Shown one piece after another: positions 29,999-59,244 of a stretch of 64,000 bases of DNA; position 1 is the stretch's first letter; each line of letters opens with the position of its first letter. The notes under the pieces are model-generated. The model saw only the letters and a list, made by a program, of their open reading frames with translations, had not been told where the DNA came from and made no database searches. The translations under genes and the position numbers were made by a program. Origin of the DNA: a virus (Duplodnaviria > Caudoviricetes); IMG/VR virus record IMGVR_UViG_3300028920_000023; one strand, 5' to 3'.

Positions 29999-30328
29999 AT
30001 GCCAAACCAGATCCCAAGCAACCTCCCCGGACACGTGCAGCGGAGGCTGCTTTCCCAGGTGGAAAGGCCCGCAAGGGCTTTCTTGCTTGCGACGGAACTC
30101 GCGAAATCCTGGAAGACCTCTTCATTCCTTGAGGAAGACAACATTGAGCAAAAATTCCTCACGGCCTATGGGGCCTGCGAGCCCAACCTCCAGAAGCGCC
30201 TCTCACAGGCTCTCAAGAGATATCGAAGAGCCTGCAGGCAAGCCAACATTTCGCCGGATGACCGCTTCAGCGTCCTCCGATACACCCACCTCAAGCCGAA
30301 GAAAATCCCAGTGAACAGCTTGGCCTGA
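29999..30328 (+). CDS. Hypothetical protein
   Basis: AAAGGAGG RBS. Confidence 0.8.
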   Translation: MPNQIPSNLPGHVQRRLLSQVERPARAFLLATELAKSWKTSSFLEEDNIEQKFLTAYGACEPNLQKRLSQALKRYRRACRQANISPDDRFSVLRYTHLKPKKIPVNSLA

Positions 30329-30388
30329 ACCAAGCGAAGCCCTTTCCTCTCTGGAAAGGGCAGGGACACAGAAGGAGAAAGGAGAAGG

Positions 30389-30589
30389 ATGACAAACGCA
30401 GAACTCATCGAGCTGCTCCAGAAGCAGCCGCCCGAGCAGGAAGCCCTGCTCACGATAGTGGACGAAGACACAATGACAACCTCGGTGGAGGCCCTCCACC
30501 GGGTTGACAAAGAAGAACTCATCCAGGATGGGTTCGACCTCGAAGACGCTAAAGATGCCGAGCCTATCGGTATCTTCATCAAGCGATAA
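30389..30589 (+). CDS. Small acidic protein
   Basis: AAGGAG RBS; MTNAELIELLQKQPPE pattern. Confidence 0.8.
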   Translation: MTNAELIELLQKQPPEQEALLTIVDEDTMTTSVEALHRVDKEELIQDGFDLEDAKDAEPIGIFIKR

Positions 30590-30767
30590 ATCTGTGCTCG
30601 AAAAACCCGCATGGAGCGCCTGCCAAGGCCCCATGAGATGGGGGACTCACATCGGCACCGACCGGAAACCGGTACGGGGTTTCCCCGAGCACTTGAAAAG
30701 AACGAAGCCCTTTCCTCACTGGAAAGGGCCGGGGCAACAGAAAGGAGAAAACATGCAAGTCGTTAGT

Positions 30768-30811
30768 TCCTGATGAGTTTTCGAAACCCTCTCCCACCGG
30801 AGAGGGTAGGG
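30768..30811 (+). ncRNA. Minimal hammerhead-like motif (family A), canonical core, GUA site
   Basis: CUGAUGA-G(UUUU)C-GAA-ACCCUCUCC/GGAGAGGGU-A-GGG. Confidence 0.7.
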
Positions 30812-30829
30812 ACACAGAAAGGAGAAAAC

Positions 30830-31217
30830 ATGAACGAAGAACAATTCATCACGAACCTGCTTACGGAGATCGTTAAACCCGAGTACGACATCCAGCAGGG
30901 GGAAGCAGTCGCAGTCAAATACGTCCCTGGGGACGTCCCAGCTTACGATTTGATCGTAAACGTCAAAGAGAAGAACTATGGACAAATGAAACTATCAGTC
31001 CTTGGGTTCTTCATCCAGAAAGGAGAACGAGAGAGCTTTCATGCTGATATCGAGCGGGATCACCTCGACGCCAAAGGAACCTTCACCTACTGGAGAAGCC
31101 TACTTCGATGAACTGGAAGAAAATCTGGAGCAAGTCCCAGACAAGAAAGCCGTCATCCAATACTTCTCCGAGACATTCGACGTATACACTACAACCGCTC
31201 TTGAAATGAACACCTGA
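30830..31217 (+). pseudogene. Hypothetical gene apparently split by a +1 frameshift near 31085
   Basis: ORF 30830-31111; protein-like text EAYFDELEENLEQ.. continues in the +1 frame to 31217. Confidence 0.5.
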
Positions 31218-31245
31218 AACACCTTATCAATCCTTGCTATATGCA

Positions 31246-31318
31246 ATTTGGCAGCTCTTGCTATCTCAAAATATTTTGACCCATATGATTCAGAACTCGA
31301 TTTGGCAGCTCTTGCTAT
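31246..31318. repeat. Pair of ATTTGGCAGCTCTTGCTAT 19-mers, 54 nt apart
   Basis: Copies at 31246 and 31300. Confidence 0.85.
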
Positions 31319-31353
31319 GTTGCTGTTAATACCCCCATACAAGAGAAGACAAG

Positions 31354-31397
31354 CCCTGACGAGAAAAGAAACCCTTTCCTCTCTGGAAAGGGTAGGG
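31354..31397 (+). ncRNA. Hammerhead-like motif (family A)
   Basis: CUGACGA-GAAAA-GAA-ACCCUUUCC/GGAAAGGGU-AGGG. Confidence 0.55.
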
Positions 31398-31417
31398 ACA
31401 CAGAAAAAGGAGAAAAC

Positions 31418-57131: not shown

Positions 57132-57317
57132 ATGTCCGAGGTGATAAAGGATGCAAGCGGAAGACCAATTGGCAAAATCGTTACCGAGGTGGACGGAACA
57201 ATAAAGGTTTACGACGATTTGGGCTTGCCAAAAGGCAAAGTCACCGAAGATGGGACTTTCGATGATCTTGGCATCAAGATTAGCTCAGCTCAGGTTCCCG
57301 GTTTGCTTCTAGACTGA
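57132..57317 (+). CDS. Small beta-hairpin repeat protein
   Basis: IKDASGRPIG..YDDLGLPKG..FDDLGIKI. Confidence 0.75.
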   Translation: MSEVIKDASGRPIGKIVTEVDGTIKVYDDLGLPKGKVTEDGTFDDLGIKISSAQVPGLLLD

Positions 57318-57355
57318 TGAGCACGAAGCAGAAGGCTTCGTGCTTTCTGCCTCAG
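57312..57355 (+). ncRNA. Hammerhead-like motif (family A, G15.1-C16.1)
   Basis: CUGAUGA-G(CA)C-GAA-GCAGAAGGC/GCUUUCUGC-C-UCAG. Confidence 0.5.
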
Positions 57356-57368
57356 AAAGGAGATCAAC

Positions 57369-57557
57369 ATGACAACAGAAGAAATCCTGGATGTCCTGGC
57401 CCAAGAACTGGGCGAATTGGAGGAATCCGAGCTGGAGAAAAGAGAAATGCTAGATCTGATGATTCACGACAGGCACAAGATTTCGGATCTAGACGAGACG
57501 CATATTAGTCAGATGCGCTTAGAGGACGAGTTCATTTTTGGAGGAGATTGTTCATGA
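57369..57557 (+). CDS. Hypothetical protein
   Basis: AAAGGAG RBS. Confidence 0.75.
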   Translation: MTTEEILDVLAQELGELEESELEKREMLDLMIHDRHKISDLDETHISQMRLEDEFIFGGDCS

Positions 57558-57796
57558 AGTACGTGATCACGCAGACGCAGGGAATCAAGCATGTTCTCCT
57601 CTGTTCCGATATCGTTTCTCATGCCGACCTTGCGAAGGGCCACGGAGAGGTTGTTTCTGCGGGAATGGTGGACGTCTATGCTACGGATGGCGAGATTCTG
57701 GTTTCGGTTTACGGAAAGTCCGTAACTCTAAAGACTGAGCCACGTTGGGGCGATGACGAGTTAATCAAAAAGCATCTTACTCCAGAAGTCTATTGA
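57554..57796 (+). CDS. Hypothetical protein (MKYVI..F...SHA..SAG type)
   Basis: GGAGGAG RBS. Confidence 0.75.
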   Translation: MKYVITQTQGIKHVLLCSDIVSHADLAKGHGEVVSAGMVDVYATDGEILVSVYGKSVTLKTEPRWGDDELIKKHLTPEVY

Positions 57797-57836
57797 TGTA
57801 GTGGGGTTTTGTGCGGGAACCAAGGGGAGCAACAAA

Positions 57837-58007
57837 ATGCTAAATGGAACAAGACTACAGGAAGATTATGTCTTGGCGATGAGGACCTTTCATGAGCGCC
57901 ACCGATCCAAGAAGTTCCGGATCAGAGCGAGACAATGCCTGAAAATCGCTAGACATTTGAAGAAGAAATATGCGGCTAATCCAATGAGCAGGGAGATCAA
58001 AGCATGA
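57837..58007 (+). CDS. Small basic protein
   Basis: AAGGGGAG RBS. Confidence 0.6.
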   Translation: MLNGTRLQEDYVLAMRTFHERHRSKKFRIRARQCLKIARHLKKKYAANPMSREIKA

Positions 58008-58237
58008 TCATAGAATGCGTCTATGATGACCACACCAGTTACTTCGAGCTGGATGACAGCCACGCCAAACAGCTCCTGGGTGTGTCAGACGCCAACACAG
58101 CAAACGACATAATCACAACCAACGGCAATTCTACAGGCATCTCCTCGGATCTGGATGTAGATGTCGTGCTGGTTTGTGGCTTTGGGTTCGATAAAGCTGA
58201 ATTCCACGAATCAATACGGGAAGCTATGGATCAGTAG
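58004..58237 (+). CDS. Hypothetical protein
   Basis: GGAG RBS, ATGA overlap. Confidence 0.7.
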   Translation: MIIECVYDDHTSYFELDDSHAKQLLGVSDANTANDIITTNGNSTGISSDLDVDVVLVCGFGFDKAEFHESIREAMDQ

Positions 58238-58292
58238 AGTTCGTCTCTGAACGAACCTGACAAGACCTATCTCGCCTAAGGAAGGAGGGAAA

Positions 58293-59117
58293 ATGAACCA
58301 AGAAGAATTAGCCAAGAGAATCAAGAGAACAACGAAAACTGCTCTCAAGCAGCACATAATGGACCTCGGAGAAAAATTAGCCTACCTAGAACGTAAAGTC
58401 GCACATGGCTGTGCCGACGCCCCCTGTGATCTCTGCGAAGAAGCACATAGGAAAGATTGGCCTTGTTGTCGTGTAATCTACTGTCCACAAGAACCAAACG
58501 CAAAGACAGCTATAATCAGATTATCCTTCAAGAAGATCAAATTCAATGGAAGAACGGGTTCCGAGCACTACTGCACCGACCTAGACGAGATAATCGATTA
58601 TCTCCACTCCAAAGACATCTTGCCTCCCGAGGATTTGCCCCCACCAAATGCTCAAAAGTTACTGGAGCTGATACAGGCTGGTTATCTGAGGCACCACACT
58701 CCAAGTAGTTGGAAAAAAGCAATATTCAGCGATCCAAGATTAGCATATAATTACGTCTGTGAGGTCATTGAGGGGCGCTGGCCAGAAGCAGAAAAAACAA
58801 TAAGCAAAGACCCAGAATACGCATATTTATACGCCAGCGAGATTATTAGAGGACGCTGGCCAGAAGCAGAAAAAACAATAGCCCAAGACCCAGAACACGC
58901 GTACCATTACGCCCGTGATATTATCGAAGGACGCTGGCCAGAAGCAGAAAAAACAATAAGCAAAGACCCAGAATACGCGTATTTATACGCATGTGAGGTT
59001 ATTAAAGGACGCTGGCCAGAAGCAGAGAAAACAATAAGGCGCGTATTCTGGGTCTTTGCTTTATATGATGAGCATGTCATCAAGGGACGCAAACATGAAT
59101 CCATCTTTGGCAGCTGA
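58293..59117 (+). CDS. Protein with C-terminal 22-aa repeats (AY.YA..II.GRWPEAEKTI..DPE)
   Basis: Four to five visible repeats; AAGGAGG RBS. Confidence 0.82.
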   Translation: MNQEELAKRIKRTTKTALKQHIMDLGEKLAYLERKVAHGCADAPCDLCEEAHRKDWPCCRVIYCPQEPNAKTAIIRLSFKKIKFNGRTGSEHYCTDLDEIIDYLHSKDILPPEDLPPPNAQKLLELIQAGYLRHHTPSSWKKAIFSDPRLAYNYVCEVIEGRWPEAEKTISKDPEYAYLYASEIIRGRWPEAEKTIAQDPEHAYHYARDIIEGRWPEAEKTISKDPEYAYLYACEVIKGRWPEAEKTIRRVFWVFALYDEHVIKGRKHESIFGS

Positions 59118-59202
59118 CACAACCCGCGCAGCACAAGGTCGCGAGAATAACGTGTGCAGCATGCGACAAGCTCCTGTCTCCCTTGGGCGCATGCCGGCTT
59201 TG

Positions 59203-59244
59203 CCCTGACGAGGTAGCGAATAACTGGCTCTCGCCAGTTAAGGG
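59203..59244 (+). ncRNA. Hammerhead-like motif (family A, unrelated stem III sequence)
   Basis: CUGACGA-G(GUAG)C-GAA-UAACUGGC/GCCAGUUA-AGGG. Confidence 0.55.

Follow-up and report, generated by a model that had tools for sequence, protein, structure and literature searches.

The stretch of DNA analysed here (64,000 nt; Caudoviricetes; IMG/VR record IMGVR_UViG_3300028920_000023), hereafter referred to as the window, belongs to a phage-like contig of ~355 kb (354,787 bp is the length recorded for the contig of the helicase encoded in the window) and carries a repeated intergenic element that we call family A. The analysis supports the view that family A is a hammerhead-derived element of the RNA level that is strand-specific and lies at cistron boundaries. 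Family A combines a 13-nt catalytic core with a stable stem III hairpin of 8-10 bp, G10.1-C11.1 in place of stem II and G1.1-Y2.1 in place of stem I. With about equal confidence for and against, this build can be read as that of a lineage-specific minimised type I hammerhead. Our favoured reading of its function, to which we give an even chance, is that of a slow or cofactor-assisted self-cleaving punctuation site that would separate cistrons. It is favoured because catalysis is the simplest account of the conserved catalytic core. The elements are named after the positions of their cores, and the spans given below begin ~6 nt earlier (30770 lies in 30764..30814, and 30325 and 30692 are the copies 30319 and 30687, respectively).

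The bias of the motif towards one strand is pronounced. The family A signature CTGAYGAGN{2,4}CGAA was matched 15 times, in 15 of 15 cases on the + strand, where 0.05 matches were expected, and a looser scan (CTGANGA, 3-10 nt, GAA, then a hairpin) yielded 22 matches on the + strand and one on the - strand. A covariance model trained on nine gap-free family A copies retrieved 16 full-length copies between 30319 and 41076 with E values of 1e-8 to 1e-21; on the - strand, it recognised the palindromic hairpin only. Three further elements (32104, 57314 and 59205) have the family A build with unrelated stem III sequences. Together with 14 family A copies, these outliers form the set of 17 intact elements to which the following counts refer unless stated otherwise.

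The hammerhead type I core (C3 U4 G5 A6 N7 G8 A9...G12 A13 A14) is present in this order in all 17 intact elements, and N7, which is U in ten and C in seven of them, is the sole core position that varies. Among the 14 intact copies, pairwise identity is 1.0 at C3-A6, G8, A9, G10.1, G12-A14 and G1.1, ~0.5 at N7, loop II, H17 and 2.1, and 0.27-0.37 in the flanks, a conservation profile that is the hammerhead's own. H17 is A in 11, U in five and C in one of the family A and outlier elements and U in all five elements of a second family (family B, see below); it is never G in these 22 elements. A preliminary description of this DNA had portrayed family A as a non-canonical minimal variant with a 1-bp stem II. 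Indeed, stem II is a lone G10.1-C11.1 pair with a loop of 2-4 nt, i.e. G-N(2-4)-C, in 15/17 elements and falls short of the usual minimum of 2 bp. The exceptions are 31356, which has A at 11.1, and 32104, which has just CGA between A9 and G12.

The same description held that the 15.1-16.1 pair is variable and always paired, and this is borne out by all 16 model-aligned copies (U-A 12, A-U 2, G-C 2) and by the 17 intact elements (U-A 13, A-U 3, G-C 1), most of which depart from the A15.1-U16.1 pair expected of a hammerhead. Across family A and the outliers, there are 12 family A copies with U-A, three elements with A-U (30770, 31356 and 32104) and three with G-C (30325, 30692 and 57314); the outlier 59205 is U-A. 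The copy 35681 is counted as U-A after model alignment, which required a one-base bulge; direct parsing gave U-G. Of the G-C examples put forward initially, 57314 is intact, but 30325 and 30692 turned out to be decayed relics without G8/A9. Since these two have no intact core, they are uninformative on the 15.1-16.1 pairs that are tolerated in working cores.

In stem III, all nine modelled pairs are formed in 100% of the cells, compared with 51-72% for slid-partner controls, and changes on both sides occur at three pairs and on one side at two, so that this helix is backed by covariation. In the G/T-rich stretch at 34-41 kb, stem III (CCUUUUCC/GGAGGGGG) contains three G-U wobbles. The helix belongs to the + sense RNA because these wobbles would be A-C mismatches on the opposite strand. 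Moreover, the same core is combined with five stem III sequences that are unrelated to each other (family A, family B, 32104, 57314 and 59205) and with a sixth at L016:13131-13168 (~window 64851, shortly past the end of the window), where it is accompanied by a 1-bp stem II, U15.1-A16.1, A at N7 and the unrelated stem III CAGCAGAG/CUCUGCUG. To judge from these sequences, what the unrelated hairpins have in common is exactly the catalytic core and not a hairpin sequence. In the L016 element, 1.1-2.1 would be a non-pairing C-A.

The properties of the hairpin also bear on the idea that the elements are intrinsic terminators or DNA-level cassette boundaries, such as recombination sites or PeSL-like promoter-stem-loop modules, and that their likeness to hammerheads is incidental. 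The hairpins in the G/T-rich part precede U-rich runs and were flagged as terminator-like, and the repeats precede unrelated small open reading frames (ORFs), as PeSLs do (PMC2839356, PMC4122927). However, in the A-rich part (30.7-33.4 kb) the sequence after the copies is AGGGACACAG or AGAACCCAAAC, without any U tract on the + strand, and U runs after the hairpin are confined to the stretch in which the strand as a whole is T-rich (34-41 kb). The wobble pairs function solely in the + sense RNA, and none of 18 promoter-like (sigma-70-like) sites coincides with an element. The strain contigs L019 and L020 do not differ at any element and hence give no population signal and no cassette gain or loss, and the invariant hammerhead core would be left unexplained. 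We therefore regard this explanation as very unlikely. The elements are neither orientation-independent DNA sites nor simple terminators, two possibilities that had been raised at the beginning. Three other identities were rejected as well: a K-turn or box C/D reading of CUGAUGA...GA is incompatible with the strand topology, the T stem that a tRNA T-arm likeness of GAGUUCGAAUCC would call for cannot form, and an N4-type DNA hairpin promoter would have A-C mismatches on the template strand.

The base composition of the array reveals selection on the core. At 34-41 kb, the + strand is G/T-rich (A 19%, C 14%), the stems have drifted from C to U and from A to G wherever a wobble preserves the pair, and the loops and flanks have an A+C content of 21%. 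Nevertheless, the six A/C core positions are intact in 9/9 family A and 5/5 family B copies of this stretch. Decayed copies have, for example, GGG or GGA instead of GAA and G in place of C3 or A6. As the core has been kept despite the G/T drift and the decayed copies show such losses, selection must maintain the core in the intact copies. Searches for relatives of the array elsewhere were negative. There was no DNA-level match to window 30000-42000 among phage records, a protein search with a 202-aa array gene gave no homologue, and the nearest homologue of the window helicase is only 26% identical. In a 320-kb phage encoding a DUF2201 protein with 40% identity, core matches were at background on both strands, and a DNA-pattern search returned two IMG/VR and nine JGI metagenome matches, all of which are due to chance and have no hairpin following. 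The comparative evidence thus comes entirely from paralogous copies of one genome, which are not independent.

Each of the elements starts 0-40 nt past a stop codon and ahead of the next ribosome-binding site, and in at least six elements the upstream stop is the U4G5A6 of the core. The next start codon follows the predicted cut site after 18-53 nt (88 nt in one case), and a Shine-Dalgarno sequence is located between the two. No paralogues were found among the genes that follow the elements, and the repeat is therefore a regulatory cassette rather than a by-product of gene duplication; accordingly, co-duplication with paralogous genes was considered and not found. A coding repeat (..DEFRILFLGGG..) was also dismissed, as its frame varies between copies and as the pipeline gene calls span from just past one element to the next, except for a few short calls that overlap with an element. 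A six-codon mini-ORF (ATG CAA GTC GTT AGT TCC TGA) is located at window 30751-30773; its start is served by the decayed copy 30687 and it ends in the CUGA core of 30770.

If family A is a self-cleaving punctuation site, the elements would be transcribed within a long polycistronic + strand RNA of the ~355 kb phage. This RNA would cut itself 3' of H17 (A or U), either slowly or aided by co-transcriptional folding, high Mg2+ or a protein chaperone. The stem III hairpin and a 2',3'-cyclic phosphate would thereby form the 3' end of the upstream mRNA, and the downstream mRNA would start with a 5'-OH G and a leader of 18-50 nt that contains the ribosome-binding site. Arguments for self-cleavage are the excess of exact core matches on the + strand, the hammerhead-like conservation profile, the absence of G at H17, the covarying stem III, the presence of the core on unrelated hairpins and its retention despite the G/T drift, the 1.1-2.1 pair in all intact elements, the lack of paralogy among the genes that follow and the biochemical precedents given below. 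A bolder version, which we advance only tentatively, is that of a natural hammerhead whose core is supported by the stem III hairpin as its one real helix, with single closing pairs in place of stems I and II and with U-A at 15.1-16.1. It would cut in vivo, a phage or host factor (a chaperone protein or the translating ribosome) possibly replacing stem I, so that ~25 sites split the transcript into single-gene mRNAs.

A number of observations weigh against self-cleavage. The 1.1-2.1 pair, itself an argument in favour, forms in 17/17 intact elements (G-C 11, G-U 5 and, through a double change in 57314, U-A once). The lack of stem I beyond this pair is the main anomaly, which the preliminary description understated. 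The 5' boundary of the repeat coincides with 2.1/C3; further upstream, the preceding gene ends in unrelated sequence. Contiguous pairs counted from the junction average 1.4 as compared to 1.1 for permuted flanks, most copies having one pair, and the RNAduplex energy of the 12-nt flanks is -2.2 kcal/mol for the real sequences and -2.7 kcal/mol for both the permuted and the genomic controls. A search for stem I in flanks of 8-20 nt, with bulges allowed and with permuted and genomic controls, gave no signal (Mann-Whitney p = 0.9). Tabler and co-workers reportedly observed in 1994 that full activity requires a helix I of ~3 bp. The other two helical features are costly, too: engineered ribozymes with U15.1-A16.1 suffered a penalty of 10-fold to 500-fold or more (PMC3088659, PMC10085705), and natural hammerheads with a 1-bp helix II cleave at ~0.01 per min (PMC13725137). 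The 2-nt loops closed by one pair (41033 and 57314) are sterically poor, and the three handicaps stacked upon each other may leave no useful rate. Moreover, about six copies have lost the core and yet retain the hairpin and the leader, which implies that part of the element's role is independent of the core. The Rfam hammerhead models did not match family A at the gathering threshold or at E <= 10. This negative is weak evidence, since a three-stem type III hammerhead-like motif escapes the models as well; it occurs in L021 and L024, two unrelated IMG/VR phages with contigs of 130-150 kb. There, the motif lies just before a ribosome-binding site and ~800 nt 3' of a twister-P1-like match (L021:347-412 and L024:100-165; 48-54 bits, gathering score 67.2), and it is not reported by Rfam.

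Family B likewise lacks stem I, with the sole exception of 37467. At window 37467-37520, a stem I of ~10 bp follows a one-base bulge (-11 kcal/mol), which is the only convincing stem I. A stem I hairpin made wholly by the 3' flank was rejected, as it lies 4 nt off the junction and occurs in three related copies only.

A further point against efficient cleavage is the competing register, in which the 3' flank pairs with C3-U4, or with C3-A6 in 57314, instead of forming stem I. The pairings quoted in the preliminary description are real, namely UUCCU/AGGGA at 30770, CCCU/AGGG at 31356, 32104 and 59205 and CUGA/UCAG at 57314, and two of them appear in minimum free energy (MFE) folds. However, the statement that such pairing occurs often was too strong, as it is restricted to these five copies and is found in none of the U-A majority. 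The alternative helices of 4-5 bp raise the possibility of a ribozyme switch whose cleavage would be gated by alternative pairing (of the 3' flank with C3-U4, of the 5' arm with the Shine-Dalgarno region, or in the rival hairpin of 57314) or by a ribosome terminating on the UGA of the core. The mutually exclusive 9-bp hairpin at 57314 and the upstream stop codon inside the core of at least six elements would fit such a switch. However, the competing register is absent from all 12 U-A copies, no covariation supports any alternative helix, and compaction alone can explain the overlap of UGA and core, which renders a switch improbable. In window 57314-57350, the two exclusive hairpins are stem III (GCAGAAGGC/GCUUUCUGC) and the all-Watson-Crick helix GCACGAAGC/GCUUCGUGC; the latter engulfs stem II and GAA and is preferred in the MFE fold. 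With regard to a tertiary contact or pseudoknot between stems I and II, inspection showed no complementarity of loop II to loop III or the flanks that co-changes across copies, the 3-nt loops offering little to compare. Dimerisation via loop II was rejected as a general mechanism, since the GAAAC of 31849 is complementary to GUUUC but is a single copy.

The more serious competitor of self-cleavage is a hammerhead-derived motif that is no longer catalytic and whose stem III hairpin and folded core remnant would serve as an intercistronic signal marking each cistron boundary. We consider this a real though less probable possibility. In this reading, the motif could be bound or cleaved by a phage or host protein, such as an endoribonuclease or an RNA-binding regulator, or it could be a 3' stabiliser combined with a 5' leader structure. 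The reduction of stems I and II to single pairs, the replacement of the near-invariant A15.1-U16.1 in most copies, the persistence of hairpin and leader in the copies devoid of a core and the missing Rfam match are all in line with a loss of catalysis. In addition, catalysis requires neither the invariance of G1.1 nor the conservation of the 3' leaders within subgroups, both of which are observed. On the other hand, a protein site is not expected to obey all hammerhead rules together (free N7, free sequence and length of loop II, H17 never G, 15.1-16.1 always paired and any stem III). The original framing, i.e. either a new ribozyme variant or switch or a non-catalytic punctuation motif, stands, except that a general switch is not supported, because the competing pairings exist in five copies only.

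The 14 intact family A copies are all encoded on the + strand. The copy at 30764..30814 has the stem II GUUUUC, A15.1-U16.1, A at H17 and three pairs in the stem I register, two of which are wobbles. The second A15.1-U16.1 copy (31350..31400) has an intact core with A at 11.1 and the competing helix CCCU/AGGG. All others are U15.1-A16.1 copies. At 31843..31893, stem II is GAAAC and the upstream stop is the U4G5A6 of the core. The stem II GGUAC is shared by 32871..32921 and 33340..33391, the latter having one bulged C in stem III. GUUUC is found at 33665..33715 (U at H17), at 34883..34933 and 39596..39646, in which the UGA of the core ends the upstream ORF and the upstream gene, respectively, and at 40290..40340 and 40686..40736. 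The remaining copies are 34158..34209 (GGUGUC; three G-U wobbles in stem III), 35675..35724 (GUGUC; one-base deletion in the 5' arm), 35882..35932 (GUGUC) and 41027..41076 (GUUC; 2-nt loop).

Four decayed family A copies on the + strand belong to the relics. At 30319..30368, G8/A9 have been lost (CUGAACCAAG), and the hairpin and the leader are kept; at 30687..30736, the core is lost (CUUGAAAAG); both have G-C at 15.1-16.1. The copy at 34947..34990 (GGUGGUGAG..CGGA) lies 60 nt after an intact copy, and in 37254..37302 (CUUGAUGAG..CGGG) GAA has become GGG. Two hairpins near 34050 and 39150 are also relics, bringing the core-less copies to about six. The three outliers are likewise on the + strand. 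The element at 32098..32145 has the unrelated stem III ACCACCC/GGGUGGU, no G-C pair in stem II, A15.1-U16.1 and a 3-bp stem I. That at 57308..57357 combines an unrelated stem III with the stem II GCAC, G15.1-C16.1 and A2.1-U1.1, and its rival 9-bp hairpin overlaps GAA. The third, at 59199..59247, has the unrelated stem III AACUGGC/GCCAGUU, the stem II GGUAGC and U15.1-A16.1.

Family B (35262..38807, + strand) comprises five elements (35262, 36743, 37467, 38156 and 38766) with a 3-bp stem II and A15.1-U16.1; apart from 37467, they are devoid of stem I. A short run of TTGTG/TTTGTG repeats follows the copy 38766 at window 38808-38845. Family B-like copies with single core changes are located at window 34085 (A3), 39190 (UGUUGAGG) and 42785 (G6), and two of these three lie directly 3' of a decayed family A hairpin.

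In the wider setting, the window carries genes for DUF4116 repeat proteins and for a subtilase, a PurZ-like gene and genes for AAA and DUF2201 proteins, for which there are PHROG matches. A 408-aa protein encoded at window 14411-15637 has a weak match to adenylosuccinate synthetase and is possibly a PurZ-type enzyme of the 2-aminoadenine pathway. The - strand encodes a tRNA at window 12597-12682, whose variable arm is long (58.9 bits; anticodon loop CUUAAAA), and the G+C content is 62.7% in the first 2 kb (window 1-2000) as compared to 37-53% across the rest. From ~30 to 65 kb, the genes lie on the + strand, in agreement with the pipeline gene calls of the sister contigs. This also holds for the real ORFs of the G/T-rich stretch at 34-41 kb, where long - strand ORFs are low-complexity artefacts. 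Both GC and AT skew change their sign twice (window 33500 and 41000) though the genes remain on the + strand; these genes of one strand are rich in A and C to the left of 33.5 kb and in G and T at 34-41 kb.

If the elements cleave, they would mark a new minimum for natural hammerheads, and the array would represent a dense natural form of ribozyme-based operon punctuation in a DNA phage, the counterpart of the ribozyme insulators of synthetic biology. If they do not cleave, they clearly illustrate how selection can retain a ribozyme core for a different function, and a protein that reads the hammerhead fold would then be suspected.

Several known systems share individual features with family A. 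The PeSL cassettes of T4-type phages are also repeated intergenic elements that precede unrelated small ORFs in a plastic region of the genome (PMC2839356, PMC4122927). However, PeSLs are DNA motifs consisting of a promoter and a terminator, whereas the elements here were not associated with any promoter, and it is a ribozyme core that is conserved in them. The hammerheads of Penelope-like elements and newt satellites are, like family A, minimal natural type I ribozymes, and they are poor as monomers. They had been cited as a precedent for a 1-bp stem II, which proved to be mistaken, as their short helix is stem III and they act as dimers (PMC6765202). In contrast to these dimer-extended ribozymes, family A has a long stem III of 8-10 bp, short stems I and II and a loop II that is not self-complementary. 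A closer parallel for stem II is provided by engineered miniribozymes, in which a lone G10.1-C11.1 pair with a 4-nt linker serves as helix II and which cut long RNAs efficiently with 12-nt arms (Hendry et al. 2004, PMC544870). The core string of copy 30770 (CUGAUGA-GUUUUC-GAAAC) is identical to that of the engineered miniribozyme (PMC544870). However, the miniribozymes differ from family A in having helix I and III arms of 8-12 nt and A15.1-U16.1 and in acting in trans.

Among natural phage sequences, hammerhead arrays have been described that flank the genes of prophages and by which polycistronic RNA is cleaved in vitro (Perreault et al. 2011, PMC3088659). As in the window, several hammerheads are located on the same strand between phage genes. 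However, the prophage arrays have three real stems, near-consensus cores and two or three copies per locus, whereas ~25 elements with vestigial stems I and II are found here in 12 kb. One natural ribozyme with a 1-bp stem II and one weakly active natural ribozyme with U15.1-A16.1 have been reported (PMC3088659), and the paper on a second natural U-A cleaver notes an at least 500-fold loss in an engineered context (PMC10085705). Thus, a 1-bp stem II and U15.1-A16.1 are each precedented, but their combination, along with the loss of stem I, is unusual. In the literature searched, no precedent was found for this combination, which occurs here in ~20 copies in a DNA phage. In the untranslated regions (UTRs) of chrysoviruses and fusariviruses, there are type I hammerheads whose helix III is long and whose helix II has 1-2 bp or is absent; they are located before ORFs, including in intergenic UTRs (de la Pena lab, NAR 2026, PMC13725137). 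These ribozymes cleave at 0.01 to 0.001 per min in vitro and are yet cleaved in vivo (PMC13725137). Although they stem from RNA viruses of fungi and plants and have no sequence relationship to family A, which is carried by a huge dsDNA phage, has mostly U15.1-A16.1 and lacks helix I, they share with it the type I order, the long helix III, the reduced helix II and the position just upstream of ORFs.

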